A stretch of 64,000 nucleotides of DNA from Chloroflexota bacterium (GCA_018606645.1 JAGVRI010000005.1:50629-114628); one strand, 5' to 3'. Numbered from the stretch's first letter, positions 13,601-61,281 are shown. Translations and numbers: made by a program. The notes: a model not told the origin generated them from the letters alone.

Positions 13601-13674
13601 CAAGCCCGCATGACGCGGACCGCGATTTCACCCCGATTGGCAATCAGCACTTTTTTGAACATCCGATATCCCAT
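10612..13674 (-). CDS. acyl-CoA carboxylase with biotin carboxylase (ATP-grasp) fused to a PccB/AccD-type carboxyltransferase; no BCCP domain
   Basis: One 1020-aa ORF. Residues 1-450 are a biotin carboxylase (KVLIANRGEIAVRVMRACRELG, ATP-grasp). After a Pro/Gln-rich linker comes a carboxyltransferase (MFVRDRIEYMLDPGSFVE, MGGARMHCEVSGLGD). Confidence 0.85.
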   Translation of the reverse strand: MGYRMFKKVLIANRGEIAVRVMRACRELGVQTVAVYSDADRAALHVRYADESYHIGPAPARESYLRIERLIEVARQSGAEAIHPGYGFLAENPQFAAACEEAGIVFIGPPAQAMAALGDKVKARQLMQRAGVPIVPGTERDLSDEELVSEADRIGFPLFIKAAAGGGGRGMRLVQNQDELLRTLGAARGEALSAFGDDRVYLEKAIQKPHHVEVQILVDRHGNAIYLGERECSVQRRHQKLIEECPSPTVDSELRSRMGEIAVRAALIAGYVNAGTVEFLLDQEGNFYFLEMNARLQVEHPVTECVTGVDIVVEQLRIAAGEPLRYEQADIQPRGWAIECRITAEDPFHDFIPHSGRITTLVQPGGPGIRVDSGLYEGCEVSPHYDSLLAKLIAWGDSREEAIRRMRRALREYVIVGIPTSIPFHQQVMETPSFVQGVYDTSFLDSFVLSRVESKELEEVAALTATLVHHQQVLAGPSPAGERKGERMEKIQPAQPQERPEPRKKPLTQSQNPPPQHLELLQRMETLYKGGPEKYHKQLAEQNKMFVRDRIEYMLDPGSFVEDGLFARYAEGLPADAMIVGLGTIEGRKVAIIANDMTVKAGTWGRIGYKKMTYMQRKADELGIPLLYLIDSAGARIDDQHHCYAGRDAWGNIFYNQIIFSGRIPQICILFGPSPAGSAYVPALCDVTIMVDKNATVYMGSPRMAEMAIGEKVTMEEMGGARMHCEVSGLGDMLVADDKEAMDAALKYLSYFPQNWREKPPMVEPRDPAPGRPIEEIVPSRESIPFDMYEFIEAIIDEGSWWEYKKLFAPEMITGLARLGGRSVGILANQSLIKAGVIFPDSADKAARFIWICNAFNIPLLFLNDIAGFMIGTQVERQGIIRHGAKFLYAVSESTVPRICVIVRKAYGGGYLAMSGAPINPDAVIALPTAKPALMGPAAAINAIYYNKIMELPPEERPAFIQAKQDEYEDNIDPYAMASEFFFEAIIPATQLRDELIARLEFYSLREAKRIERRCGIIPG

Positions 13675-32674: not shown

Positions 32675-33050
32675 CCTTTCCTCCCTTTAATCAAGTTTCT
32701 TTCATACGGTTTCCGGATGCACCAGCAACTAGAAGATCAACCCCGATACGATCACCCCCTTCCCAAGGATCACTCCAGAAAAAAATGAATACGCCCTCAG
32801 ATGCACTACTAACACTAACACTGCGAACGATAGCTGGATCCGGTTGGATTGCGGACGGTTTGGAGTCCAGGCACCGTAACCGAAACTGGTTCAACAAGAC
32901 AACAGTTGCCCAGGCAGCATATCCTGCATCATTCAGAATACAAAATGCTATTTTGTGTTTGCGCCATTATATCATAGCCGTCGGGGCTTGTCAAGTATGG
33001 CGCGATAAAATTTTGGGGACACCCGAACCTCCGTTTCGCACGTCATAGAT

Positions 33051-41593: not shown

Positions 41594-44224
41594 CTATCGT
41601 TGCGCGTTGGTGTGGTTCGTCCTGGCACTCTTCTGGGCCAGGAACCGGGCCACAAAGGCCTTTTCCTCCTCCTCGGTATGGATTTCGCCATCGAGGCGTG
41701 CATCGCGCAGCGCACCAAGCACCTGGCTAAAGAGAGGCGAAGGTTTCAATCCCAGGCTCTTGAGGTATTCTCCGTCCACCACCGGTTGTACATGGCGCAA
41801 CTCCGTTTCATAGCGCCATAGTCGTTCCTGGACTCGCGGCGATGTCGTGCAAAGCCATTGGATCAAGACAGCCGAGGTGGAAAAGTGGCGAAGCAGGGCA
41901 TAGATCTCCCGGTTGGCAAGGTGAGGTTGATCCAGTTTCTCCTCCCGATCTCGCAGATCGAAAACCTGGCGAAGCAGCGTTAGATCGCTTCGGTAGATCT
42001 TCAGGCGATGGATCAACGTCTCCAATTCCGCCCGGCTTAGATGGTAGACCAGCAACGCCAAATAGAGGCCCGGCGGCGGGCGTCCGTTGCTGGTGGATGA
42101 GATCTCCCACCCGCCGCTGGCGATCGCCCGACGCAGTCGGCTAAACCGTTCCCGTGTCTCCTCCGTACAGAACAGACGGGGATGGATCTGGGTCAAAACC
42201 TTCAGGGCATCGAGTCGAAACAGGGCACGCTCGGGTTCTGGTTCGGACAGGATCAAATACAGCTCATGGCGGATCCGCTCCCCCGAGACGCGGGAAAGCA
42301 TCGGCAATGCGTTGTCAATCAACTCAGCCGTACGGGGTTCGATGACAAACCCCAGGCGCTGCTCAAAGCGGACGGCGCGCATAATCCGGGTGGGATCCTC
42401 GATGAAACTCAGGCTGTGCAGCACCCGGATCACGCCCTCCCTCAGGTCCTGCTCACCGCCGTAAAAGTCCAACAGCTCCCCGTAATGATCCGAATCCAGT
42501 CGGATGGCCAGGGTATTGATCGTAAAGTCCCGGCGATGGAGATCGGCCTTGATCGAACTCCGTTCCACTTCCGGCAAGGCAGCCGAGTGAGCATAGAACT
42601 CCATCCGGGCGGTGGCGAAATCAAGGGACGACACACCAAACTCGTCTTCGCGGCCTTCGAGAACGATCTTGGCGGTGCCAAACTGTCGGTGGCTTCGAGT
42701 GCGCGCTCCCACCCGTCGGGCCACACGCCGAGCCAGTTCGATGGCATCGCCTTCGACGACCAGGTCCATGTCCAGAGTCGGCTGACCCAGCAACAGATCG
42801 CGGACAAACCCGCCCACCACATACAACGGATACCCCATCTCCTGGGCCAGTGCGCTGGCTTGCTGGAGTAGATTCAACAGCGGACCAGGGAGAGCCTCTT
42901 CGATCTTTTGAGTAATTTCCCGCCGGCGCGAGGGCCGGTAGGGTTCTGCCGCCCATAGCTTGATCAGGTCGGTGCGGGTCACCACACCGATGATCTCGTC
43001 ATCCTGGACGACCGGTACCTGACCCACGCCATAGCGGGTCATCACCTGTTGGAGTCGCTCCAACGAATCGGTGGGCAGGACATGAATGTTCCCCTTGGTC
43101 ATGTAATGACTGACCGGCATGTGGCCCAGTCGCAAACGTGCGGCGCGGTCGATCTCGCGACGGGAGAGGATGCCCACGATCTTGCCGGCGTTATCCACCA
43201 CCGGGAACCCCTCAAATCCATAGCGGAGCATCGCCTCCATCGCCTCGTCGACCGTGGTGTCCGGCGAGAGGGTATGGACGCCGTAGGACATAATCTGAGC
43301 CACTGTCTGAGTCGGACGAATATGCTGCGCCAAGATTTCCAGGAGCTCCTGCCGAACGGTCTCCAAATCCATGTCGCGGATCAAGGCCGCAGCCGCCCGC
43401 GTGTGCCCTCCTCCTCCAAAATGACCGGCGATTTGGCCGACGTCTATGGTGTCGGTCGTCGAGCGAGCGACCATCTGCAAATACTCGCCCAGGTCCACCA
43501 ACAGGAACAGACAGGATGGATCATACAGGTCTCGGATCTTGTGGGCCAGAGTGGAAATCTCTTCCACATACCCCTCGGCCACCGCCGAGGCGATCACGAT
43601 GGTATGTCCGGCCAACTCAAACACCTCGGCGCTGTCGAGTAACGTGTTGTAGAGATTCAGTTGCTGGTCTGTGAGCGGATAGTACAAAAAATCGCTGACC
43701 ACCGCCAGATTCGCGCCATTTTCGATCAGCCACGCCGTGCAGCGCAGATCGCGGGCGGTGGTGGTGGGATAGATCAGTGAACCGGTATCTTCATAGACGC
43801 CCAACGTCAACAGAGTCGCCTCTACTGGTGTTAGTGAAATCCGGTTCTCCACGATCTGCTCCACCAGCAGGGTCACCGTGGCACCTACCGCCTCGCCGGT
43901 ATAGCTCCAATGGGGTGGTAGATCGCGGCCCAGAGGATGGTGATCGATGATCTGGACGATGGTATTCTCGGTCATGCCTTTGGGCGTGACCAACGTCTGG
44001 GTATCGACCAGCGTCACCCGCTCCACCTCCACCCGGCGCGGCAAGTCTTCATACCGGATATACGGCAGTTCATCCCAATACAGGGTCAAGAAATCCCGAA
44101 GATTGCGATTCACGCGGCGAGACAGCACCGGCTTGGCCTGGGGATAGAGTTTCCAGGCAGCCAGTTGCGAGGCCAGGCCATCGAAATCGGTGTTTTCGTG
44201 GGTCAGTATCAGATGCACCCCCAT
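41594..44224 (-). CDS. multidomain DHH/DHHA1 phosphoesterase, CBS pair and tRNA-nucleotidyltransferase/poly(A)-polymerase protein
   Basis: 876 aa. N-terminal DHH motif (LILTHENTDFDGLAS), two CBS domains (the second begins ...VSHYMTKGNIHVLPTDSLE), and a C-terminal Pol-beta NTase head (YVVGGFVRDLLLG ... DFTINTLA). Confidence 0.8.
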   Translation of the reverse strand: MGVHLILTHENTDFDGLASQLAAWKLYPQAKPVLSRRVNRNLRDFLTLYWDELPYIRYEDLPRRVEVERVTLVDTQTLVTPKGMTENTIVQIIDHHPLGRDLPPHWSYTGEAVGATVTLLVEQIVENRISLTPVEATLLTLGVYEDTGSLIYPTTTARDLRCTAWLIENGANLAVVSDFLYYPLTDQQLNLYNTLLDSAEVFELAGHTIVIASAVAEGYVEEISTLAHKIRDLYDPSCLFLLVDLGEYLQMVARSTTDTIDVGQIAGHFGGGGHTRAAAALIRDMDLETVRQELLEILAQHIRPTQTVAQIMSYGVHTLSPDTTVDEAMEAMLRYGFEGFPVVDNAGKIVGILSRREIDRAARLRLGHMPVSHYMTKGNIHVLPTDSLERLQQVMTRYGVGQVPVVQDDEIIGVVTRTDLIKLWAAEPYRPSRRREITQKIEEALPGPLLNLLQQASALAQEMGYPLYVVGGFVRDLLLGQPTLDMDLVVEGDAIELARRVARRVGARTRSHRQFGTAKIVLEGREDEFGVSSLDFATARMEFYAHSAALPEVERSSIKADLHRRDFTINTLAIRLDSDHYGELLDFYGGEQDLREGVIRVLHSLSFIEDPTRIMRAVRFEQRLGFVIEPRTAELIDNALPMLSRVSGERIRHELYLILSEPEPERALFRLDALKVLTQIHPRLFCTEETRERFSRLRRAIASGGWEISSTSNGRPPPGLYLALLVYHLSRAELETLIHRLKIYRSDLTLLRQVFDLRDREEKLDQPHLANREIYALLRHFSTSAVLIQWLCTTSPRVQERLWRYETELRHVQPVVDGEYLKSLGLKPSPLFSQVLGALRDARLDGEIHTEEEEKAFVARFLAQKSARTNHTNAQR

Positions 44225-44705
44225 GAACCCTCCAGCAATCGGATTATACCATTAAGAGCACCGGGGGGCAATCAGAGCTTGGGAAGCGTCACCGGTTGGG
44301 GGTCTCGCCATTTGATGCGTGAAGGAATGGCTCTCGCTGGCGAAAACTGACTTAACAATGGTTCTTGCCGCCGGTCCGGCAGCGTTTGGCCGAGAAGTGG
44401 CTACGGTCTGTGGCGAAGCTGGCGACCCAAGCGATTCTGGCTAGCCAGTCGCCACAAAGCCTCCTCGGCCTCCGGCTACAAACTGACTGCCTGGGCGGTC
44501 GCTCCCTCGCTCCACCCCTCCACGGCCTTCAATGGCTGGTCCAGAGGGAAAACCCCCGCGCCGCAACCGTCACAGGTGAAGTAGGCTCTTCGAACGTCGA
44601 ATTGCAGATTCCTGGGCCATTCTTTCCCCTCCCATCAGCCATTTCCCCCTATTCTACCTCACCCGACAAGTTTGGGACGCACCCGTTCGGTGTGCGACAG
44701 CCTAT

Positions 44706-44735
44706 TTGACAAATCCATACCCCGCTCGTTATAAT
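44706..44735 (+). promoter_or_regulatory. near-consensus sigma-70 promoter (TTGACA -18 nt- TATAAT) driving the downstream plus-strand glycan locus
   Basis: TTGACA at 44706-44711 and TATAAT at 44730-44735, about 40 nt upstream of the GTG at 44774. Confidence 0.6.
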
Positions 44736-44773
44736 TTGTATATCATATCTCTTCTTCACAGGGAATGGCATAG

Positions 44774-46129
44774 GTGCACAATGAAGGCGATGCCGATCTC
44801 GTGGTTCTCGGCGGCGGCCTGGCTGGTCTGACCTTCGCTTGGGAAGCGGGTCATCGTGGCCGGCAGGTTTCCATTCTGGAGTGTCAACCGCAGGTCGGCG
44901 GGTTGGCCCGGACGTTGGTCTTCAACGGCTACCGTTTCGATCTGGGCGGCCACCGTTTTGTGAGCGCCTGGCCGGAGGTCACCCAGTGGGTGCAAGAAGT
45001 GATGGCCGACGACCTGGTGTCAGTAGTTCGACGCAGCCGTATCCATTTGGGTGGACGGTATGTCGATTATCCCCTGCAGTTCCCCAATGCGTTCACTGCG
45101 TTCAGCTTCCCCCAGGCCATCCGCATCCTGGCCAGCTATCTGTACGCTTCCCTGCGACGGAACGATCAGCCCGATATCTCGTTCGAAGATTGGGTGGTGC
45201 GTCGTTTCGGGCGAGGGCTGTACGACATCTACTTCCGCCCCTACACTGAGAAGGTATGGGGCATACCCTGCGCTGAATTGTCGGCGGACTGGGCCAGTCA
45301 ACGCATCCAGTTGCCCAGCCTGACGGCTGCGGTCCGCAGCAGCCTCTTCCGCCAGCAGTCCCCTCCGGCCACTCTCGTCTCGCGTTTCCTCTACCCCACC
45401 CTGGGCATCGGCTCGTTGCCGGAACGGATCGTTGCTCAGGCCCAGGCCACTGGTCGCGTCACCCTCCATCTAAACAGTACCGTTGAACGCCTGGAGCCGG
45501 ATGGCAGGGCGTGGCGCGTCTACTACCGGCAGGATGGTCAGGAGAGTACAATCGCTGGACGGCAAGTCATCTCCACCATTCCCCTGGACACGCTCGTGCG
45601 CGCGTTGCCGCTGGGCGATGGCGTCGCCGAACTCAGCCGCGCGCTGGCCTACCGGGGAATCATTTGCGTCCTGTTAGCCGTAGACGGCCCCCGGATCAGC
45701 CAGGATACCTGGACCTACTTCCCGGATCACCGCCTGATCTTTGGTCGCATCCATGAACCAGTGAACTGGAGCCGCCTGATGGCTCCGCCGGGCAAGACCT
45801 CGCTCTGCCTGGAGATCTTTTCTTCGGAAGGCGATGGCGTCTGGCAGGAAACTGACGAGCGGTTGGTGGATTGCGCTCTGGCAGACCTGAACCGGCTGAG
45901 GTTATTGACCCCGGACCGCGTCGAGGCAGCGTGGGTGACGCGGGTGACCCATGCCTACCCTATCTACCGGGTGGGCTACGCCCGGGTCCTGCGCCAGGCG
46001 CGAGAATTGATCGCCCGCTGGCCCACGCTGCACCTGTTGGGACGCACCGGCGAGTTCGAGTACCTGAACATGGACGCGGTGATCCTTCGAGCATTGCGCC
46101 TGGCGGATCGATTGGCCGATGATCGCTGA
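44774..46129 (+). CDS. FAD-dependent oxidoreductase (amine-oxidase / protoporphyrinogen-oxidase / UDP-galactopyranose-mutase-like fold)
   Basis: DLVVLGGGLAGLTFA...ILECQPQVGGLART dinucleotide-binding motif. 451 aa. The GTG start is inferred. Confidence 0.7.
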   Translation: MHNEGDADLVVLGGGLAGLTFAWEAGHRGRQVSILECQPQVGGLARTLVFNGYRFDLGGHRFVSAWPEVTQWVQEVMADDLVSVVRRSRIHLGGRYVDYPLQFPNAFTAFSFPQAIRILASYLYASLRRNDQPDISFEDWVVRRFGRGLYDIYFRPYTEKVWGIPCAELSADWASQRIQLPSLTAAVRSSLFRQQSPPATLVSRFLYPTLGIGSLPERIVAQAQATGRVTLHLNSTVERLEPDGRAWRVYYRQDGQESTIAGRQVISTIPLDTLVRALPLGDGVAELSRALAYRGIICVLLAVDGPRISQDTWTYFPDHRLIFGRIHEPVNWSRLMAPPGKTSLCLEIFSSEGDGVWQETDERLVDCALADLNRLRLLTPDRVEAAWVTRVTHAYPIYRVGYARVLRQARELIARWPTLHLLGRTGEFEYLNMDAVILRALRLADRLADDR

Positions 46130-47570
46130 AACGCAGATCGCCCTGCGTAACTCCGGCTGGGTGCTCGCCCAGCAGGCAGCCCAGATGGTCAGCGGCCTGT
46201 TGTTTGCCATGTTGGTGGTGCGACTGATGGGGCCGGAGATGTACGGGCGTTATGCCGTCTTGACCGCCCTGCTGGTCTGGTTCTTTCTCCTCGGCGGGTT
46301 GGGCTTTAACCAGGTGATCGCCCGCTATGTGCCAGAGTATCGCCTCGCCGACGATGCAGACGGACTGGCCCGTTTCCTGGGCGGTGTGTTAGGCATCCGC
46401 CTGCTGAGCGCCGTCGGGGCTGCTGCCGTGTATCTCACCCTGACTCGACTCTGGTTGCGCGACCTGGACCCGGTGACACTGATGCTGATGGCCGGTGCGC
46501 TGTGCCTGCGCTGTATTTCCCAGTTCTTTTACTCCCTGTTTTTGGGACTTAACCGCGCCGGGCGGTGGGGCATGAATCAGGTTCTCCGCGAATGGGTGAC
46601 GCTGGGGCTCATTATCCCTGGCGTGCGCTGGCTGGGCCTGCGCGGTGCGGGCTGGGCGTTGCTGGGTACAGAGATCATAGTGTTGTTCGTAGCCCTGGTC
46701 TGGGCGCGCTCGCATCTGTGCGGCCTGCGCCTGGGTCTAAATGCGTCGGCCCATCTGCGCTTTGCACTGATCTTCTTTGCCGGCAGTGTGCTCTTGACCG
46801 CTTTTCAATACAGCGGCGAACCCCTGGTGCGCGCCCTGTCGCTCGACTACACCCAGGTGGCCTATTTCGGGCTGGCGTACAATATTTACCTGACTATTTC
46901 GGCGGCGATGGGGCAATTGACCCACTCCTTCGTGCCGTGGTGGACGGCGCTATGGACGCGGGGTCACAGCCAGGACCTCCAGGTGTGGGTTGAGCGGCTG
47001 GTCAAGTGGCTGGCCATTGGCGGCGTAGCGATGGTGATGGGCGTGTCATTCCTGGGCGAGGAGGCCGTCGTTCTGGTCTTTGGCGCGGCCTATCGCCCGG
47101 TCGCCGTCCACCTGATCCCATTGGCGCTGGCTACGGTGGCCCTGGCGTTGAGCTATGTTGCCTACACGCTGACAGCGGTGTGCGAAAGGCCCGAGGTGGC
47201 ATGGTGGGCATCGGCCCTGCGGGCGGCCAGTTTTTGGGCGCTGGGCATCCCGCTGATCGCCTGGAAGGGCAGCCTGGGTGGGTGCATCGCCGTCCTGGCG
47301 GCCGTGTCGCTGCACGCTGCCTACCTCACCATAGAGATGCGCCGGGCGGCGCTGCCATATTCACTGCGCCCTTGGGGGCTGGCGGTCGCCCTGGGCGCGA
47401 TCTTTTGGCCGCTGGGCTGGCTGCGCGTCTCATGGACCGTCCGCGCGGTGCTGTGTGGCGCCGCCCTGATCGGGTACGCCGGTCTACTCCTGGCGGTGCG
47501 ACTGGTCACACCGGTCGAGCTGCGCACCGTCTGGCAAACCGTTCGCAGAAGAGAGGAGGGAGGCGCATGA
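46119..47570 (+). CDS. polysaccharide/oligosaccharide flippase (Wzx-like, MOP superfamily)
   Basis: 483 aa with about 12-14 predicted TM helices. The N-terminus LRNSGWVLAQQAAQMVSGLLFAMLVVRLMGPEMYGRYAV is typical of Wzx/RfbX. Confidence 0.7.
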   Translation: MIAETQIALRNSGWVLAQQAAQMVSGLLFAMLVVRLMGPEMYGRYAVLTALLVWFFLLGGLGFNQVIARYVPEYRLADDADGLARFLGGVLGIRLLSAVGAAAVYLTLTRLWLRDLDPVTLMLMAGALCLRCISQFFYSLFLGLNRAGRWGMNQVLREWVTLGLIIPGVRWLGLRGAGWALLGTEIIVLFVALVWARSHLCGLRLGLNASAHLRFALIFFAGSVLLTAFQYSGEPLVRALSLDYTQVAYFGLAYNIYLTISAAMGQLTHSFVPWWTALWTRGHSQDLQVWVERLVKWLAIGGVAMVMGVSFLGEEAVVLVFGAAYRPVAVHLIPLALATVALALSYVAYTLTAVCERPEVAWWASALRAASFWALGIPLIAWKGSLGGCIAVLAAVSLHAAYLTIEMRRAALPYSLRPWGLAVALGAIFWPLGWLRVSWTVRAVLCGAALIGYAGLLLAVRLVTPVELRTVWQTVRRREEGGA

Positions 47571-48928
47571 TCGCGGCCCGTCTATATGGGAGTGTGTATC
47601 TGGCAGTTCACCTGCGCGGCCAGGCGGGGTACCCGTTCCGGCCGCTGGCGGCCATCGAACGCGATCGGGATCGTCGCGTGCGGGCGATGGTCGCCTATGC
47701 GTACCGTCTTGTGCCTTATTACCGCGAGACAATGGACCGCCTGGGCCTGCGCCCGGCCGATTTTCGCACTGCTGCTGACCTGGCCCGCCTCCCCATCCTG
47801 GAACGGGATCAGCTCCAGCGCGACCCGGAGTATTTTGTGTCCACCGCGCAACCGCTGGACCGCTACCTGCGGCTGCGCAGCGGCGGTAGCACTGGCGCGC
47901 CGCGCACCATCTACCACGACGTGCGGGCTTTGCTCCAGAATCGGGCGCACGCTGAACGGGAAAGCCCGATCATCGCCCGGTTTGTCGGCCGGCGCTGGGG
48001 CTACCGCATGGCATCTGTCGGCTCCCCGCTCAGTTCCGGACAGGAGATCGGCCGGTTTTTGGGCGCGCGATCCTTCACCCCGCCCAGCTTGAGGATTGAG
48101 CGCCAGGCCCTGTCGCTGTTCGACCCGCCCGAAGAGAATGTGCGCCGGATCAATGTGCTGCGGCCGGATATCCTGCACAGCTATGGCTCCTACCTGGAGG
48201 TCCTGTTCGGATACCTGCATGCTTCCGGTGAATCGTTTCACCGTCCGAAGCTGATCACGTACACCTCGGATGGCATGTCCGATTCGGTCAGGCGCCTGAT
48301 CGAACAGGAATTCCACATTCCGGTGCTGAGCACCTACCAGGCTATCGAGGCGCTTCGGATCGCGTTTGAGTGTGAGCAGCACCTGGGCCTGCATCTGAAC
48401 GTGGACCTGTACCCGCTGCGCATCGTGGATGAGAACGGGCGGGATCGACCGCTCGGCGAGAGCGGCGACATCGTGATCTCGAACCTGGTCAACCGCGCCA
48501 CCGTGTTGCTCAACTATCGCCTGGGCGATGTGGCCACGCTGAGGGCGGACCGGTGTCCCTGCGGCCGGTCGCTGCCATTGCTCTCCTTCCCCGAAGGACG
48601 CAGCGATGACCTGATCCAACTACCCGGAGGCGGCGTGATGCATCCTCAGGCAATCCGTATTATCTTTACCCACGAGCCCCAGGTCTGGCAGTACCAGGTC
48701 ATGCAAGAGACGGCAACCCGCTTCCGTATCGCCATCGTCGCCTCCCCCTCCTGCGATCGCGCCCAGACGAGCGTCCGGGTGCGGGAGGGATTCATCCGCA
48801 CCTTTGGATCGGAGATTCAAGTGGAGATCGAGTTTGTGGATTCGATCCCCCGCACCCGGGGCGGCAAGGTGCGTCCGGTCCTCTCGCTGTGCCAACAGTC
48901 GGCGCTCTCCGGACAAGACCATGGTTAG
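47567..48928 (+). CDS. CapK-like / coenzyme F390 synthetase-like adenylate-forming enzyme (phenylacetate-CoA ligase family)
   Basis: RSGGSTGAPRTIYHD P-loop-like AMP-binding motif and the PaaK/F390-synthetase architecture. The ATG at 47567 is preceded by GAGGAGGGAGG and overlaps the flippase stop (ATGA). The longer ORF from 47006 was rejected. Confidence 0.7.
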   Translation: MIAARLYGSVYLAVHLRGQAGYPFRPLAAIERDRDRRVRAMVAYAYRLVPYYRETMDRLGLRPADFRTAADLARLPILERDQLQRDPEYFVSTAQPLDRYLRLRSGGSTGAPRTIYHDVRALLQNRAHAERESPIIARFVGRRWGYRMASVGSPLSSGQEIGRFLGARSFTPPSLRIERQALSLFDPPEENVRRINVLRPDILHSYGSYLEVLFGYLHASGESFHRPKLITYTSDGMSDSVRRLIEQEFHIPVLSTYQAIEALRIAFECEQHLGLHLNVDLYPLRIVDENGRDRPLGESGDIVISNLVNRATVLLNYRLGDVATLRADRCPCGRSLPLLSFPEGRSDDLIQLPGGGVMHPQAIRIIFTHEPQVWQYQVMQETATRFRIAIVASPSCDRAQTSVRVREGFIRTFGSEIQVEIEFVDSIPRTRGGKVRPVLSLCQQSALSGQDHG

Positions 48929-50357
48929 GTCGTGGTCCCGTCTCTTGCGACGCGCCACCGAGGTCCTGCGCACCGAGGGTCTGCGGAGTTTTTTCTTCAA
49001 GGTGCTGGGCGAGACGGTGTACCGTCGGGTGGTGGTGGTAGAGCGCGACCTGAGCCAGCCGCCGCCCGTGGTACAGGCCCGCCTGCCGGTAAGTATCGTC
49101 CGACTCTGCGACAGCGAGATAGAAGAATATGTGGCCTTTCGACCAGAGACCGACGCCGCCGAGGTGCGCCGGCGTCTTCAGGCCGGACAGGTCTGCTGGC
49201 TGGTCCGGTATGAGGGGCGCATCGTCCACTCCTGCTGGGTGACCACTGGCCGCGCCTGGATCGAGTACCTGGGCTGGGACGTCGCATTGCCTCCGGACAC
49301 AGCCTACTCGTACGAGTCCTTTACCGCTCCCGAGTTGCGCGGACAGAACCTCGCTGTGGCGCGTTCGGTGGTGATGCAACAGGCGCTCCGCCAGGCTGGA
49401 TATCGGCGGGCGGTGGCGGTTATCATGCCGGAGAACCGGGCCGGCTTTTATCCAGCAGAAAAAGCCGGGTATCGTCGCGTTGGAGTGATGGGCTATCTGC
49501 GGATCGGCCCGTGGCGGTGGACCTTTGGCCGGGATGCCTTCTACCGGCCCATCCGCACCGACGAGCCGGCCTATTGGGATCAGGTGGCGCGGCGAAGCAG
49601 GGAGCGCCCCCCCTACCTCGACCCGTTCCTCGGCGAGCTCAAGCGGCAGGCGCACCTGGCGCTCATTCGCCGCTGGGGTGGCCTGACCGATGCCGGCTGG
49701 GTGATGAAGACGGACCTTTATGAAGAGGCGACCGGCCCCGATGCCTTTCTACCCGACCTGGAGGGAGAGCGACGGCGATTGCTGGGCATCGACCTCTCGC
49801 CGGTCATCGTCCAGGAGGCTCAGCGCCGCCATTCATCCACGGCAGCGCATTATGTGGTGGCCGATGTGCGCCGTTTGCCCCTGGCCGACCGAACGATCGC
49901 CTGCATCGTATCGCCTTCCACCTTGGACCATTTCCCCGACCCCGCCGACCTGGGCCGCAGCCTGAGCGAACTGCGCCGGGTCCTGGCGACCAGCGGCCGG
50001 CTGATCGTGACCGTGGACAATCGGCAGAACATCCTGGACCCGCTGCTGCGCCTGATCGCCCGACTGGGGCGGGCGCCCTATTACCTGGGCCGATCCTATC
50101 GCATCGGCGAGTTGGTTCGCGCGCTGGAGGCAGCGGGGTTAACGGTGCGCGACACGACCGCCATCCTTCACAATCCCCGCCTGATGGCCACGGCGGCGGT
50201 GGCGGTGGCCGACCGACTGCGCTGGCCGCAGTTCCGCAACGTGGTGCAGCGTGCCCTGATCGCAGCTCAGCGGCTGGAAGGGACGCGGTGGCAATACCTG
50301 ACCGGAAGCTTTATCGCCGCACTGGCCATCCGCAGCGCCTCGGCGGAGGAGAGGTGA
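48921..50357 (+). CDS. bifunctional GNAT-family N-acyltransferase / class I SAM-dependent methyltransferase fusion
   Basis: The N-terminal ~200 aa are GNAT-like (VRYEGRIVHSCWV ... QAGYRRAVAVIMPENRAGFYPAEKAGYRRVG). The C-terminal ~230 aa are a type-11 MTase (LLGIDLSPVIVQEA, VADVRRLPLADRTIACIVS, LATSGRLIVTV). The start at MVRSW overlaps the upstream stop. Confidence 0.65.
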   Translation: MVRSWSRLLRRATEVLRTEGLRSFFFKVLGETVYRRVVVVERDLSQPPPVVQARLPVSIVRLCDSEIEEYVAFRPETDAAEVRRRLQAGQVCWLVRYEGRIVHSCWVTTGRAWIEYLGWDVALPPDTAYSYESFTAPELRGQNLAVARSVVMQQALRQAGYRRAVAVIMPENRAGFYPAEKAGYRRVGVMGYLRIGPWRWTFGRDAFYRPIRTDEPAYWDQVARRSRERPPYLDPFLGELKRQAHLALIRRWGGLTDAGWVMKTDLYEEATGPDAFLPDLEGERRRLLGIDLSPVIVQEAQRRHSSTAAHYVVADVRRLPLADRTIACIVSPSTLDHFPDPADLGRSLSELRRVLATSGRLIVTVDNRQNILDPLLRLIARLGRAPYYLGRSYRIGELVRALEAAGLTVRDTTAILHNPRLMATAAVAVADRLRWPQFRNVVQRALIAAQRLEGTRWQYLTGSFIAALAIRSASAEER

Positions 50358-53266
50358 TCAAACTCTCGGTCATCATCCCCGTCCATAACGGCGGCGAGGA
50401 TTTTCGACGCTGTCTTGTTGCGCTGGCGGCCTCCTTCCGTCCGCCGGATGAGCTGATTGTGGTGGATGATGGCTCTAGCGATGGTTCGGGCGACGTAGCG
50501 CGACAGTTCGGCGCGCATGTTGTACGGATCGAGGGGGCGCCGCGCGGCCCCGCCTTTGCCCGCAATCGCGGCGCCGAGTGCGCCCACGGCGATCTACTGG
50601 TGTTCCTGGATGCCGACGTGGCCGTCCACCCTGACACCCTGGCGCAGATCGAGCAGTCCTGGAAGGACCACCCGGAACTGGACGCACTGTTCGCCTCGTA
50701 CGACGCCGACCCGCCGGCCCGTGGACTGGCGACGCGCTACAAGAACCTGCTCCACCATTATGTACATCAGCATGGCAGCCGGGAGGCCTCCACTTTCTGG
50801 GCCGGCTGCGGCGCCATCGACCGTCAGGTATTTGCGGCGCTAGGCGGCTTTGACGAACGCTACACTCGGCCGGCGGTTGAGGACATCGAGCTTGGCCTCC
50901 GGCTGAAACGGGCAGGATACCGCGTCGGGCTGTGCCCTGAGATCCAGGTCACGCATCTCAAACGATGGACCCTGGCCAGTCTGATCCGCACCGATATCTG
51001 CAACCGGGCCGTTCCCTGGACGCAGCTCATCCTCCAGCATGGTCACCTCCCGGATGACCTGAACCTGACCATCCGCAGTCGCTGGAGCGCGCTGGCCGCC
51101 TGGGTGGCGGCGATCGGTCTGTTCCTCGGCTTTGGCTGGCCCACGGCCTGGCTCGGTGCCCTGGCCGGCACCGTTGCCTTGATCGCGCTGAACGCTGACC
51201 TGTACCGCTTCTTCTACCAACGGGGAGGACCAGGCTTTGCGGTCGGCGCAACAGGGTTACATGCCCTCTATCTGCTGTACAGCAGTCTGGTGTTTGGCCT
51301 CATGGCGGTCGCCCACGGCCGCGCCGGCCTAGTCAAGTGTTGGCGACGGCTGGCTCCCGCCCGGCGCGCCCTGGTAGGATTGCTGGCGCTGACGCTGGTC
51401 AAGGGATGGTTGTGGAGTATCATCGTCCCGGTCTGGCTGGGCGGCGATGAAGATCAACATTTTGGTTACGTCCAGGAGTTCACCCGTCAGCGCGCCTGGC
51501 CGGTCCAGCCACCAGAGATGGTCCCCCGGGAGAGGGCATTGCTCTGGGAGTTGCTCCGCCCCGTTGCCATCTCGGTGCAACGCGAGCCGTTTGATTTCTC
51601 TCCATCCGGGCTGAGTCAAATCCAGGCGCTGAGGCGCCAACTGGACACGCCGGCGGCGCGCACTGAACTCGTGCCCACCTTCTCGATGCCCTATTTCATC
51701 CGCCAGCATCCGCCCCTGTACTATACCCTGCTGGCCCCCGTCCACCACCTGGGGGTCGAACGCAGCATTCTGGTGCGCATCGCCTGGATGCGGCTTGTTT
51801 CGGTGCTGATGGCAGTGGCGACCGTGGGCTGCGCCTATGGCGCAGCCCACACGCTCTGGCCAGATCGACCGTGGTTTCCCTGCACCGTGGCCACACTGGT
51901 GAGTTTCCATCCCCTGTTCACCTTTTACACGGCGATCATCGGCAACGCAGCGTTGGAAATGCTGGACTGGGCTGCGTTCACGTGGCTGGCCGCTATCATC
52001 GTTCGCCGCGGGATGAATGGACGACGAGGGCTGGCGCTCGGTGGGGTCATGGCCGCCGGGTTGCTGACCCGGAGCAGTTTTCTCGCCGCCTGGCTGTTGT
52101 TCCTGGTCCTAGGGGGATGGGATATCCTGCGGGCGAAAGGGCGCTTCCATTGGCAAGGGTGGGCGGCGGCGATAGGAACGCCGGTGTTGCTGGCCGGGTG
52201 GTGGTACCTGGACTTGATATCCACTGGCGGCGGCGAGATGGTCGAACTCTACCGTTCCTCGGACGCATCCGTAACGGCGGTGCCGCTACTGCCCTACTTG
52301 CGCACCTACCCCTGGCTGACCCGCTATCGGCCGCTCTTGCGCGAATGGTGGGGGGCCTTTGGCTTCCGGGATACCTACTATCCCCTTCCCATGTACGGCC
52401 TCCTGGAGTTGCTGACGGGGCTGGCCCTCGTGGGTTGGGGGTGGTTGGGTCTGCGGCTGCTGCAGCGCAAGAGGGTGAGCAGCGGCGACCGGTGGATGCT
52501 GGCCATCGGCGTCATTTCGACGGTGGGCCTGATCGCCTTTTACACGGCGCTGGACTACCGGATGGCCCAGAGCGGGAGTTGGTTCAAGATCCAAGGGCGT
52601 TACTATCTCGCACCCGTCATAGCCCAGATGGCCGCCCTGGCCGTGGGCTGGCGGGCCTGGGGGCGCCGGTGGATGGTGCTGGCGATGTGTGTAGGCATGA
52701 TCGGGCTGAACAGCTACGCCCTGGCGGGCGTGATCGCGCCGCGCTACTATGGTGAGCAGATCGTGGTGCGCTATGAGCCGACCGGGGACCCAGCGTCGCT
52801 TGTCCCCGGGTTGACCGTTTCCCGGACTTTTGAGTTGGAAGGGAAGGGCTTGTCGCGCCTGGATATCTGGTTGAGCCGGGAAAAAGAAGCCGCGCCGGAG
52901 GCAACGGTGATCGTGGTAGAAAACGGGCAGGAGGTCGTTCGCCTGTCCATCGCGGCATCGCAGATGACGGCTCCCTACCCCACTGTGCTGCGCTTCCGAC
53001 CTCAGCCAGAAGGGAGCCATCGGTACACAGTGGAGGTGCGTGGCAGTGGGACGAAAGTAGCTCGATCTGAAGACGGGCAGTTGGCGCTCAAAGCCTACTA
53101 CCAGGTTCCCCCTCTGGAGATGCTGACACGAATGACGATCATCCAGCCGGCCGGTTACACCGTCGGCCTGATCGTGGTGCTGGGCAGCCTCTACCTGTTG
53201 GGGTTGGCAGCGTGGCTCTGGGCCTTTCTGGCTGGTGGCCTCTTGCAGAGGCGATCCGATGGATAG
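50354..53266 (+). CDS. glycosyltransferase family 2 (GT-A) domain fused to a large polytopic membrane domain (GT-C/ArnT/PMT-like) with a C-terminal extracytoplasmic domain
   Basis: The GTG start overlaps the upstream stop (GTGA). The N-terminus has LSVIIPVHNGGEDFRRCL ... VVDDGSSDGS ... LVFLDADV, i.e. a GT2 DxD. More than 15 hydrophobic helices follow (residues about 230-800), then a ~150-aa soluble domain and a final TM. Confidence 0.7.
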   Translation: MIKLSVIIPVHNGGEDFRRCLVALAASFRPPDELIVVDDGSSDGSGDVARQFGAHVVRIEGAPRGPAFARNRGAECAHGDLLVFLDADVAVHPDTLAQIEQSWKDHPELDALFASYDADPPARGLATRYKNLLHHYVHQHGSREASTFWAGCGAIDRQVFAALGGFDERYTRPAVEDIELGLRLKRAGYRVGLCPEIQVTHLKRWTLASLIRTDICNRAVPWTQLILQHGHLPDDLNLTIRSRWSALAAWVAAIGLFLGFGWPTAWLGALAGTVALIALNADLYRFFYQRGGPGFAVGATGLHALYLLYSSLVFGLMAVAHGRAGLVKCWRRLAPARRALVGLLALTLVKGWLWSIIVPVWLGGDEDQHFGYVQEFTRQRAWPVQPPEMVPRERALLWELLRPVAISVQREPFDFSPSGLSQIQALRRQLDTPAARTELVPTFSMPYFIRQHPPLYYTLLAPVHHLGVERSILVRIAWMRLVSVLMAVATVGCAYGAAHTLWPDRPWFPCTVATLVSFHPLFTFYTAIIGNAALEMLDWAAFTWLAAIIVRRGMNGRRGLALGGVMAAGLLTRSSFLAAWLLFLVLGGWDILRAKGRFHWQGWAAAIGTPVLLAGWWYLDLISTGGGEMVELYRSSDASVTAVPLLPYLRTYPWLTRYRPLLREWWGAFGFRDTYYPLPMYGLLELLTGLALVGWGWLGLRLLQRKRVSSGDRWMLAIGVISTVGLIAFYTALDYRMAQSGSWFKIQGRYYLAPVIAQMAALAVGWRAWGRRWMVLAMCVGMIGLNSYALAGVIAPRYYGEQIVVRYEPTGDPASLVPGLTVSRTFELEGKGLSRLDIWLSREKEAAPEATVIVVENGQEVVRLSIAASQMTAPYPTVLRFRPQPEGSHRYTVEVRGSGTKVARSEDGQLALKAYYQVPPLEMLTRMTIIQPAGYTVGLIVVLGSLYLLGLAAWLWAFLAGGLLQRRSDG

Positions 53267-53302: not shown

Positions 53303-53368
53303 GGTTCACTTTTCAACTGGAAACCGTTCGTTTTTCAGCCGGAAATGGTTCACTTTTCAACTTTTAAC
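53303..53368. repeat. three tandem 22-bp direct repeats (GGTTCACTTTTCAACTGGAAAC / CGTTCGTTTTTCAGCCGGAAAT / GGTTCACTTTTCAACTTTTAAC)
   Basis: The 16-nt core GGTTCACTTTTCAACT is identical at 53303-53318 and 53347-53362, and a degenerate copy sits at 53325-53340. The period is exactly 22 bp, immediately upstream of the LacI-operon promoter. Confidence 0.6.
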
Positions 53369-53389: not shown

Positions 53390-53436
53390 TTGACAAACGT
53401 TTGTCTTTGTGCTATACTGGAAGACAAACGTTTGTA
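53390..53436 (+). promoter_or_regulatory. promoter (TTGACA -17 nt- TATACT) bracketed by two LacI-type palindromic operators (GACAAACGTTTGTC at 53392-53405 and GACAAACGTTTGTA at 53423-53436)
   Basis: The first palindrome is a perfect 14 bp with a central CG and overlaps the -35. The second has 13/14 matches and lies downstream of the -10 (53413-53418). The LacI-family gene start follows 24 nt later. Confidence 0.7.
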
Positions 53437-53459
53437 TTCGCCGTGGAGAAGGGAAGCCA

Positions 53460-61252: not shown

Positions 61253-61281
61253 TTGACAATCGAACATTTGTTCTGTATAAT
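61253..61281 (+). promoter_or_regulatory. SOS promoter with a LexA box (CGAACATTTGTTCT, GAAC-N4-GTTC type) inside a TTGACA -17 nt- TATAAT spacer
   Basis: TTGACA at 61253-61258, CGAACATTTGTTCT at 61261-61274 and TATAAT at 61276-61281. Confidence 0.7.

Follow-up and report, generated by a model that had tools for sequence, protein, structure and literature searches.

Several known systems decorate an envelope polymer by combining a GT2 glycosyltransferase at the cytoplasmic face, a flippase and a polytopic GT-C transferase outside the membrane: GtrA/GtrB/GtrC, CsdA/CsdB/CflA in Lactococcus, CsbB/YfhO/GtcA and ArnC/ArnE-F/ArnT. Eukaryotic and archaeal lipid-linked oligosaccharide assembly uses cytosolic glycosyltransferases, a MOP-type flippase candidate and lumenal GT-C ALG enzymes. 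The pairing of a mutase with a GT2 galactofuranosyltransferase is known from Glf with GlfT1/GlfT2 and from eukaryotic UDP-galactopyranose mutases (UGMs). In PcManGT (an archaeal membrane mannosyltransferase), class I HAS and MftF, a GT-A domain carrying D, DxD, ED and QxxRW-like motifs is followed by interface and transmembrane helices, and none of these enzymes is fused to a GT-C domain. In V. cholerae, the glycine amide of GulNAcA in VPS, present on a lipid-linked disaccharide, depends on the PaaK/CapK-like protein VpsH (PMC13463779). The cassette described here comes from an uncultured Chloroflexota bacterium. Every part of it belongs to a known enzyme family; the combination has not been studied before and, in agreement with an earlier note on this DNA, no characterised pathway with this set of genes was found. 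It differs from lipid-linked oligosaccharide assembly in eukaryotes and archaea in being a compact operon of a bacterium, where one fused enzyme is accompanied by tailoring genes of unusual kinds. Sequence and structure models suggest, with a probability of roughly 45%, that the operon assembles and decorates a lipid-linked envelope glycan in steps on both membrane faces.

The window (the whole 64-kb stretch of DNA that was analysed) carries five plus-strand genes, g1-g5, at 44774-53266, whose stops and starts overlap. Genes g1 (44774..46129, 451 aa) and g5 (50354..53266, 970 aa) start with GTG; between them lie g2 (46119..47570, 483 aa), g3 (47567..48928, 453 aa) and g4 (48921..50357, 478 aa). 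The overlap is 11 nt at the g1/g2 junction and 8 nt at g3/g4, with a common ATGA at g2/g3 and a common GTGA at g4/g5. GGAGG-like ribosome-binding sites precede g3 and g5. An independent Logan contig yields identical gene calls, with the same five lengths, which confirms the coordinates given earlier. The proposed near-consensus promoter (plus strand, 44706..44735) is of the sigma-70 type and matches TTGACA-N18-TATAAT at 12/12 positions, with the g1 start codon 39 nt downstream; the window holds 3 perfect matches of this kind against 0.01 expected from shuffles. Promoter and overlapping junctions support the proposal of one promoter-led, translationally coupled unit, and on these sequence features g1-g5 are taken as a genuine five-gene operon.

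The product of g1 had been described as an enzyme of the FAD amine-oxidase fold. Pfam bears out the fold (Amino_oxidase, E 1.8e-26; NAD_binding_8, E 1.7e-13), but amine oxidase is not the best label, the nearest solved relatives being UGMs. The protein has an N-terminal FAD-binding Rossmann motif and the overall UGM fold, its best PDB matches are the T. cruzi and A. fumigatus enzymes (phmmer, E 1e-32), and it aligns over its full length to TcUGM 4dsg (E 1e-32). It retains 8/9 active-site residues of eukaryote-type UGMs; in TcUGM numbering, G61-H62 (GGH loop), R176, Y317, R327, Y395, R423, Y429 and N433 are identical (histidine loop and substrate- and phosphate-binding residues listed in PMC4192007). 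The conserved UGM-type residues are also invariant across 14 family members. Two positions differ from known UGMs, to which the match is modest: N201, which contributes to catalysis, is V in g1, and N157 of the uridine pocket is T, itself invariant in the family, so that the nucleotide or sugar may differ and the substrate may be other than UDP-galactose. NCBIfam places g1 just below the cut-off of the unnamed PRK07208 family (PRK07208.1-4, 375 bits, cut-off 389), for which we know of no activity. From its sequence, g1 is probably an NDP-sugar pyranose/furanose mutase of the PRK07208 or eukaryote-type UGM kind. Nearly all loci with a g1-like gene also encode a g5-type GT2, as expected if the GT2 consumes the mutase product.

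The g2 product, with a Polysacc_synt match (Pfam, E 3e-14) and at least 10 hydrophobic segments, is by sequence a Wzx-type flippase of the MOP superfamily for lipid-linked glycans, as first proposed. The CapK/F390-synthetase-like ligase assigned to g3 is likewise supported. Here the family matches are uneven: the local Pfam copy gave no match, NCBIfam gave weak DVU_1553-family, PaaK and F390-synthetase matches, all far below the cut-offs, and precomputed matches include PF27533 (CapK_C). Comparison with PaaK 4r1l in the PDB (E 1.6e-22) aligns an SGGSTGAP P-loop, YRLGD, the GRSDD hinge and the catalytic lysine of a C-terminal GGK, and g3 is accordingly assigned by sequence to the PaaK/CapK-type adenylate-forming enzymes with intact ANL motifs. 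VpsH is also an adenylate-forming PaaK-like ligase in a glycan locus, with a lipid-linked intermediate as its substrate (PMC13463779). The likeness is one of family assignment (PaaK-like, CapK_C). Unlike the VPS locus, the present one lacks a uronic-acid-forming dehydrogenase, and VPS for its part has no counterpart of the GNAT-methyltransferase to which g3 is coupled in translation.

That fusion, the product of g4, combines a GNAT acyltransferase domain (49020..49535, plus strand; aa ~34-205) with a class I SAM-methyltransferase-fold domain (49566..50333, plus strand; aa ~216-471). In g4 alone the GNAT match is weak (Acetyltransf_3, E 0.08; ArsN1, E 0.01). At family level the assignment holds: PF00583 is matched by 11/13 N-terminal domains, the profile finds phosphinothricin N-acetyltransferases in the PDB (E 1e-4), and the structure model of g4 has a GNAT-like pattern of strands and helices. 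The second domain matches Methyltransf_11/25 at aa 271-363 (Methyltransf_11, E 3e-12), and its top Foldseek matches are the sugar O-methyltransferases AtmM and RebM (E 1e-13) and other small-molecule methyltransferases. D291 and D315 are invariant, and the fold is Rossmann-like with an acidic residue after strand 2. Motif I is atypical. In place of the glycine-rich D/E-x-G-x-G-x-G, g4 has LKTDLYEEATG (family consensus LKTDLFEEAxG), in which K263, T264, D265, E268, E269, A270 and G272 are invariant; lacking GxGxG, the domain is not assured of binding SAM. The fusion of a GNAT domain to a methyltransferase-fold domain, claimed earlier, is upheld by the PF00583 matches of relatives and the Methyltransf_11/25 match of g4 itself, as far as sequence and models can tell.

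The largest protein, g5, begins with a GT-A-fold GT2 catalytic domain (50354..51043, plus strand; aa 1-230) that carries D38-D39, D86-x-D88, E176-D177 and H201-L-K-R-W205, H replacing the Q of QxxRW. As in HAS- and cellulose-synthase-like enzymes, the GT-A domain with these motifs leads into interface and transmembrane helices; a superposition on CvHAS covers 303 residues at 2.9 A, and PcManGT is the top Foldseek match. Enzymes of the HAS/PcManGT/MftF type are the top structural and HMM matches, and the domain is of this synthase-like type, not of the GtrB/ArnC/DPMS type. About 3-4 helices separate it from a polytopic GT-C domain (51356..52750, plus strand; aa ~335-799), which superposes on solved GT-C enzymes and is closest by fold to Pmt4 and ArnT. 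Directly after the first GT-C helix (335-357) stands a D365-E366 pair, invariant in 38 sequences, predicted to lie in the first extracytoplasmic loop and presumably equivalent to the PMT DE motif; the loop before this helix has 6 K+R and 0 acidic residues, and an H452-P-P motif lies further downstream. By sequence the domain is elusive. Residues 291-970 have no Pfam match even at E 10, a profile of the 38 homologues found no GT-C chain in the PDB, and weak matches to the curated families PMT_2 or DUF2142 occur in some homologues only. The fusion of GT2 and GT-C named in the earlier note is therefore borne out in both domains, but the expected Pfam GT-C match to g5 is absent. At the C-terminus (52751..53254, plus strand), the model's secondary structure shows a beta-sandwich at aa 800-917 and one last transmembrane helix at aa 937-967. 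This extension is limited to the closest relatives: coverage of g5 is 96-99% for homologues of 940-1004 aa and only 82% for those of ~850-880 aa. Sequence and models together identify g5 as a HAS/PcManGT/MftF-like membrane GT2 fused to a PMT/ArnT-like GT-C domain.

The architecture of g5 bears directly on the possibility of a classical three-component glycosylation with extras. The GT2 would load one (furanose) sugar on polyprenyl phosphate, as do GtrB, ArnC, DPMS and CsbB, g3 and g4 would tailor it in the manner of ArnD in the Ara4N pathway, g2 would flip it, and the GT-C domain would pass it to an acceptor, whether wall polymer, lipid or protein. As a rule, PMT/ArnT-like GT-C enzymes depend on polyprenyl-phosphate-monosaccharide donors, and it is Pmt4 and ArnT that the g5 domain most resembles; the PMT_2 or DUF2142 matches of its homologues point the same way, and the domain is predicted to be a polytopic transferase that acts outside the membrane. 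The fusion of a donor synthase to its transferase would be a logical arrangement. Triads of GT2, GT-C and flippase are documented for wall-polysaccharide side chains, and GT2 and DUF2142 pairs occur in rgp loci (PMC9746298). However, the GT2 is of the HAS/PcManGT/MftF type and not a polyprenyl-phosphate sugar synthase such as GtrB, so that a simple loading of sugar on polyprenyl phosphate is not supported and a GtrB-to-GtrC relay does not explain the two halves of g5. The cassette further departs from these systems in joining GT2 and GT-C in one polypeptide, in having as its flippase a 483-aa MOP/Wzx protein in place of a small one of the GtrA or SMR type, and in the added mutase, ligase and GNAT-methyltransferase. 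This explanation is considered unlikely.

Also unlikely, in our estimation slightly more so, is that the product is a glycosylated small molecule or membrane lipid, in which g3 and g4 build an acylated, methylated aglycone or head group of the amino-acid type, an MftF/HpnI-like GT2 glycosylates it, and GT-C and Wzx handle the glycolipid. In Acidobacteriota and other phyla, the g3+g4 pair forms stand-alone operons with no glycosyltransferase nearby and frequent tandem duplicates of the ligase; the substrate of the pair need therefore not be a glycan. Loci in Gemmatimonadota and Thermoanaerobaculia combine the pair with AsnB-like, Mur-ligase-like, ADI-like and AMP-binding enzymes, neighbours that suggest amide-bond chemistry on a metabolite. 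MftF, which acts on a small-molecule cofactor, is among the best named relatives of the GT2, and amino-acid N-acetyltransferases are the nearest relatives of the GNAT profile. Against this, g4 in Chloroflexota almost always lies directly upstream of the GT2-GT-C gene and overlaps it, in the company of Wzx, a UGM-like enzyme and other glycosyltransferases, and no carrier protein, NRPS/PKS or exporter genes are found. Nor do we know of any role for a GT-C domain in soluble natural-product pathways.

The relatives of the cassette, all from metagenomes, define what is conserved. All five genes are found again in L085, where their order is kept, the junctions overlap and the flanks are unrelated. 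L088 and L090, which are close relatives, have only the ligase, the GNAT-methyltransferase and the GT2-GT-C gene; this core is present in L089 too, where, as in L086, a second ligase and an amino-acid dehydrogenase are added, and the ligase is absent from the close relatives L087 and L005. The co-occurrence of CapK-like and GT2-GT-C genes, suggested earlier as a check, is thus found in L085, L088, L089 and L090. The notion of a compact five-gene system stands in so far as L085 repeats it, but the conserved unit is the three-gene core seen in L088 and L090, and the set of five is one of the arrangements found in a modular family. Mutase and Wzx form an accessory pair of neighbouring genes, present in some relatives and absent from others: a g2-like gene adjoins a g1-like gene in L085, L087, L005, L006 and L035, and both are missing from L088 and L090, so they are not essential to the core function. 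Related loci also contain GT1/GT4 and further GT2 genes, a second Wzx family, AsnB-like amidotransferases and amino-acid dehydrogenases, that is, genes of glycan and amide chemistry.

The Wzx flippase, the glycosyltransferase and the tailoring enzymes are typical of Wzx/Wzy-type O-antigen, EPS or capsule loci, and capsule, O-antigen and VPS loci are also known to contain CapK-like ligases and AsnB-like amidotransferases. The cassette might then be an ordinary fragment of such a locus with the remaining genes elsewhere. This is very improbable, since this compact cassette is found again among flanking genes that are unrelated, its sole glycosyltransferase gene is fused to a GT-C domain, and no initiating phosphoglycosyltransferase, Wzy, chain-length regulator or export protein is encoded in the cassette, in the flanking genes or larger genes of the 64-kb window, or in the relatives' conserved cassette. 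Sugar-nucleotide genes are likewise absent from cassette and window, and the description of the locus as self-contained has to be given up; carrier and primer must come from elsewhere. A synthase-type polymer machine, in which the HAS/cellulose-synthase-like GT2 polymerises and translocates a homopolymer (e.g., galactofuranan) and the GT-C domain decorates or anchors the chain as it emerges on the outside, is highly improbable: the ~3-4 helices between GT2 and GT-C are fewer than in channel-forming synthases, PcManGT, the top Foldseek match, is as far as we know non-processive, the presence of a Wzx gene speaks for an intermediate linked to a lipid, and c-di-GMP, BcsB-like or outer export partners are absent.

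If the operon indeed assembles and decorates a lipid-linked envelope glycan, g1 would convert an NDP-pyranose to its furanose form, and the GT2 domain of g5 would add the furanose, at the cytoplasmic face, to a membrane-embedded acceptor (a lipid-linked sugar or lipid). With ATP, g3 may activate a carboxylate, which could belong to an acid such as an amino acid or could be, as genetics indicates for VpsH of V. cholerae, a uronic-acid carboxyl of the intermediate itself; the resulting substituent would be linked by an amide or ester bond. In g4, the GNAT domain would N-acylate an amine and the methyltransferase-fold domain would methylate the unit, after which g2 (Wzx) would flip the lipid-linked product. 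Outside the membrane, the GT-C domain, with Asp-Glu in its first outside loop, would complete the job: it would hand the unit on to its final acceptor, or else attach a further sugar from a polyprenyl-phosphate donor that other genes would have to provide; the cassette encodes no maker of such a donor.

A bolder and doubtful extension is that g3 and g4 form a module, so far unrecognised and spread across phyla, for attaching an aminoacyl (or similar) group that is N-acylated and methylated, and that in Chloroflexota this module is wired to a unique single-polypeptide enzyme with an inside GT2 and an outside GT-C, and to a bacterial furanose mutase of the eukaryote type. If this is true, bacteria of a lineage that is mostly uncultured and poorly understood would make envelope glycoconjugates of a new class. 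With all parts from known families and a familiar overall logic, specialists may be only moderately surprised. To our knowledge, little is known of envelope chemistry in Chloroflexota (Anaerolineae), and the cassette offers a compact 3-5-gene target for learning it. It also raises questions of enzymology: what role a bacterial relative of eukaryotic UGMs plays, how a synthase-like GT2 works together with a PMT/ArnT-like GT-C when both are fused in one protein, and what CapK-like ligases attach to glycans, on which, as far as we know, only VpsH genetics has so far been informative. Any function assigned to the ligase and methyltransferase-like pair would annotate many genomes at once: in a collection with one genome for each of 185,579 species the pair is found in 283 places, in many other phyla as well, and the best 80 of the 283 are all in metagenome-assembled genomes.

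The region 44774-53266 is filled by five plus-strand ORFs, named here for their predicted products: a flavoenzyme (g1, 44774-46129, 451 aa), a Wzx protein (g2, 46119-47570, 483 aa), a PaaK/CapK-like ligase (g3, 47567-48928, 453 aa), a GNAT-methyltransferase protein (g4, 48921-50357, 478 aa) and a GT2-GT-C fusion (g5, 50354-53266, 970 aa). An independent gene caller applied to the identical Logan contig returned the same five products with the same lengths. As an earlier note on this DNA had claimed, consecutive genes overlap at all four junctions: by 11 nt at g1/g2, through a common ATGA at g2/g3, by 8 nt at g3/g4 and through a common GTGA at g4/g5. GGAGG-type ribosome-binding sites lie 5′ of g3 and g5. 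The promoter that the note had described as near-consensus, ahead of the five genes (TTGACA-N18-TATAAT, 44706-44735, plus strand), matches the consensus at 12 of 12 positions. Three perfect promoters occur in the window against 0.01 expected, the other two being TTGACA-N17-TATAAT at 32966-32994 (minus strand) and 61253-61281 (plus strand); the organism thus uses consensus or near-consensus sigma-70 promoters, which makes the cassette promoter credible. From sequence and structural models, the cassette is established as one predicted operon for a flavoenzyme of the UDP-galactopyranose mutase (UGM) type, a MOP flippase, a PaaK/CapK-type adenylating enzyme, a fusion of GNAT and methyltransferase folds, and a GT2-GT-C protein. 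The families themselves are familiar; their conserved, modular combination is unstudied.

For g1, an FAD amine-oxidase fold had been proposed. Pfam does match Amino_oxidase, along with NAD_binding_8, but the closest solved structures are eukaryote-type UGMs and not amine oxidases: T. cruzi UGM (TcUGM, 4dsg) is the best relative (E 1e-32 across residues 9-442), and A. fumigatus UGM gives E 1e-26. Against the unnamed NCBIfam family PRK07208, g1 scores 375 bits, slightly below the 389-bit cut-off; literature searches found no paper on PRK07208 proteins. The active-site set of TcUGM includes R176, N201, Y317, R327, Y395, R423, Y429, and N433 (PMC4192007). In the residue alignment, where chain positions run 3 ahead of the literature numbering, g1 keeps the GGH histidine loop together with counterparts of all of these except N201, which is replaced by V; in the uridine pocket, N157 is replaced by T. 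The conserved active-site residues and the T at the N157 position are invariant in 14 g1-family members from several phyla. The UGM matches and the kept active site suggest that g1 is probably a nucleotide-sugar pyranose/furanose mutase. A carotenoid/hopanoid glycoside pathway, combining a CrtI/CrtD-like desaturase with a GT2, was rejected because UGMs match g1 far better than desaturases (the CrtI family gives E 1e-9 across only 50 residues) and the UGM active site is retained.

The next two assignments of the earlier note were borne out. The flippase, g2, belongs to Polysacc_synt (Wzx/MOP) and contains at least 10 hydrophobic segments. The CapK/F390-synthetase-like protein, g3, has no match in the local Pfam copy; it weakly matches the PaaK, F390-synthetase, and DVU_1553 models of NCBIfam, and precomputed annotation assigns it PF27533 (CapK_C). 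Aligned with PaaK 4r1l, its P-loop, YRLGD, GRSDD, and terminal lysine are all intact, as expected of a functional-looking adenylating enzyme. The best NCBIfam models for g3 and for the methyltransferase domain of g4 both come from the DVU_1553/DVU_1556 cluster; a link to that cluster was set aside, the scores being far under the cut-offs (113 vs 300 bits and 32 vs 155 bits).

The GNAT-methyltransferase fusion was likewise recovered in g4. Residues ~216-471 adopt a class I methyltransferase fold (model pLDDT 85), with the sugar O-methyltransferases AtmM and RebM as top Foldseek matches. Class I methyltransferases carry a glycine-rich SAM loop at motif I. At that position (aa 261-271, 49701-49733), the g4 family has LKTDLFEEAxG, invariant in 21 homologues from several phyla; the acidic residues D291 and D315 downstream of this altered motif are retained. 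The structural matches also include SpnF and SpnL, non-methylating enzymes with the same fold. Residues ~34-205 form a GNAT domain that is weak in g4 alone and clear at family level, PF00583 being matched by 11 of 13 members; the family profile is nearest to phosphinothricin (amino-acid) N-acetyltransferases.

The model of g5, built from 38 homologues (pLDDT 93), has a GT-A domain in residues 1-230 followed by membrane helices. The GT-A motifs are D38-D39, D86-x-D88, E176-D177, and H201-L-K-R-W205, and at the sequence level the MftF and EpsD models match across 280 residues (E 4e-28). The proposal of a GT2-GT-C fusion held for the GT2 half by sequence and for the GT-C half by structural models, with no Pfam match for the C-terminal 680 aa alone, even at E 10. 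Because the 38-sequence profile retrieved only GT2 chains from PDB sequences, GT-C membership could not be demonstrated by sequence. Taken with the models, g5 is established as a predicted fusion in which a PMT/ArnT-like GT-C follows a membrane GT2 of the synthase/PcManGT/MftF type. Its end (52751-53254, aa 800-967) consists of a beta-sandwich (800-917) followed by the final transmembrane helix (937-967). This extension, which has no Pfam match, is confined to the closest relatives (940-1004 aa), is missing from homologues of ~850-880 aa, and may serve to bind the acceptor. No significant match emerged from a profile-profile comparison between g5 and an 857-aa membrane protein that adjoins a split Anaerolineae variant of the cassette (L047).

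Full-length named relatives of g5 are all from Chloroflexota, mostly Anaerolineae. Among the loci examined, L085 has all five genes in the same order with unrelated flanks, and keeps the overlaps at g2/g3, g3/g4, and g4/g5. L089, at a contig end, reads Wzx, ligase, GNAT-methyltransferase, second ligase, amino-acid dehydrogenase, GT2-GT-C; L087 and L005 read mutase, Wzx, GNAT-methyltransferase, GT2-GT-C; L088 and L090 contain only ligase, GNAT-methyltransferase, and GT2-GT-C. L086 consists of GT4, ligase, methyltransferase lacking the GNAT domain, dehydrogenase, and GT2-GT-C, and L003 of GT2, Wzx, GT2, GT2-GT-C, and mutase. The split Anaerolineae variant has mutase, methyltransferase, ligase, and a stand-alone GT2, with adjoining GT1 and GT2 genes. 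These arrangements define, for the loci examined, a recurring core of methyltransferase-like protein and GT2-GT-C fusion, usually with a ligase; the mutase and Wzx genes are accessories that travel together. The core copy in L002 (8240-12824) seems to be either degraded or wrongly assembled: the ligase is reduced to its first 77 residues, and the homologues of g4 and g5 are both broken across reading frames.

A scan seeded with the g4 family, covering one genome per species in 185,579 species, gave 283 confirmed places in Chloroflexota, Acidobacteriota, Gemmatimonadota, Binatia, Methylomirabilota, Planctomycetota, Verrucomicrobiota, Myxococcota, Nitrospirota, Proteobacteria, and others. The best 80 of the 283 are all in MAGs, and the cassette lineages are without cultured representatives. 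ORFs were clustered in 83 loci (78 from the scan and five others). The methyltransferase-like gene is most often accompanied by a g3-like ligase (32 of 83), then by g1-like flavoenzymes (13), GT2s (9+5), Asn-synthase-like amidotransferases (6), and Wzx (5+3). In Acidobacteriota the methyltransferase-like/ligase pair forms an isolated unit, in which the ligase is often duplicated. Stand-alone operons of GNAT-methyltransferase and one or two tandem CapK-like ligases were seen at ~10000-14000 in L012, L017, L018, L020, L022, and L062 (Acidobacteriota and others), with no glycosyltransferase within 10 kb, so the pair is a module in its own right. In Gemmatimonadota/Thermoanaerobaculia loci the pair lies beside AsnB-like, Mur-ligase-like, ADI-like, and AMP-binding enzymes. 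Across the loci L029 (8495-17723), L030 (6664-11434), and L082 (8603-17617), a B12-radical SAM enzyme is also among the neighbors. Such a set of amide-bond enzymes may indicate that the substrate there is another or an additional one.

The reading we favor, at a probability of roughly 0.45, is that a lipid-linked glycan is assembled, decorated, flipped, and finished by GT-C outside. The mutase would supply a furanose nucleotide sugar, which the GT2 domain would attach to a membrane-embedded acceptor at the cytoplasmic face; ligase, GNAT, and methyltransferase would add acyl or aminoacyl and methyl decoration; Wzx would flip the lipid-linked product, and the GT-C domain would complete it outside the membrane. 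The observations of the earlier note are confirmed and its interpretation is partly supported. Three-component glycosylation systems and lipid-linked oligosaccharide assembly share this course from inside GT, through flipping, to outside GT-C. The GtrABC kind differs in two defining features: both the GT2 and the flippase fall outside the Gtr type, so the cassette is not classed as such a system. The match of g5 to polyprenyl-phosphate sugar synthase models is confined to its first ~100 residues, and a classical GtrB-type relay appears rather unlikely. PMT/ArnT-like enzymes normally use a polyprenyl-phosphate sugar donor. The absence from the cassette of a maker of this donor and of an initiating transferase is a weak point of the favored model, as is the dispensability of mutase and Wzx in the closest three-gene versions. 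A further one is that other phyla have the ligase/methyltransferase pair in the absence of glycosyltransferases. That the product is a glycosylated small molecule or lipid is unlikely. For PaaK/CapK-like enzymes in glycan synthesis, the one experimental precedent found is VpsH of V. cholerae, on which the glycine amide of the lipid-linked VPS disaccharide depends (PMC13463779). Carboxylate/amine chemistry is consistent with the AsnB-like amidotransferases and amino-acid dehydrogenases of related cassettes; the dehydrogenases are too divergent to assign a substrate. A complete Wzx/Wzy locus is ruled out because Wzy, initiator, and export genes are all missing, and a fragment of an ordinary one, despite the Wzx gene, is improbable. 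A synthase-type polymer machine is slightly more improbable still. Literature searches turned up no publication on this cassette or on g5-type GT2-GT-C fusions, in line with the note's failure to recognize a characterized pathway; those on GT2/GT-C fusions in Chloroflexi gave nothing specific to this system, and those on PaaK-type ligases amidating uronic acids nothing specific beyond the VpsH paper.

Upstream, a non-coding stretch of ~480 nt (44225-44705) separates the cassette promoter from a divergent gene (41594-44224, minus strand) for an unusual 876-aa DHH/DHHA1-CBS-poly(A) polymerase/CCA-adding enzyme fusion. In the 550-nt intergenic region upstream of g1 and at the 5′ end of that gene, an Rfam scan gave no credible match. 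No terminator-like site was found 3′ of g5. The next gene encodes the LacI-family regulator of a sugar ABC operon and has its own 11/12 promoter (53390-53418). Palindromic GACAAACGTTTGTC-type sites (53392-53407 and 53423-53438) overlap this promoter and are thus probably LacI operators for that operon. Two exact copies of GGTTCACTTTTCAACT lie 44 nt apart (53303-53318 and 53347-53362). The remaining window genes code for transporters and for the catabolism of acyl-CoA and lipids; since glycan genes are absent from the rest of the window, the cassette is an island. Its GC content (46001-52000) is slightly higher than in the flanks (0.65 vs 0.59-0.61) and its AT skew strongly negative, compatible with membrane-protein codon content or acquisition from elsewhere. 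Elsewhere in the window, an unusual 1020-aa single chain fuses biotin carboxylase and carboxyltransferase (10612-13674, minus strand).
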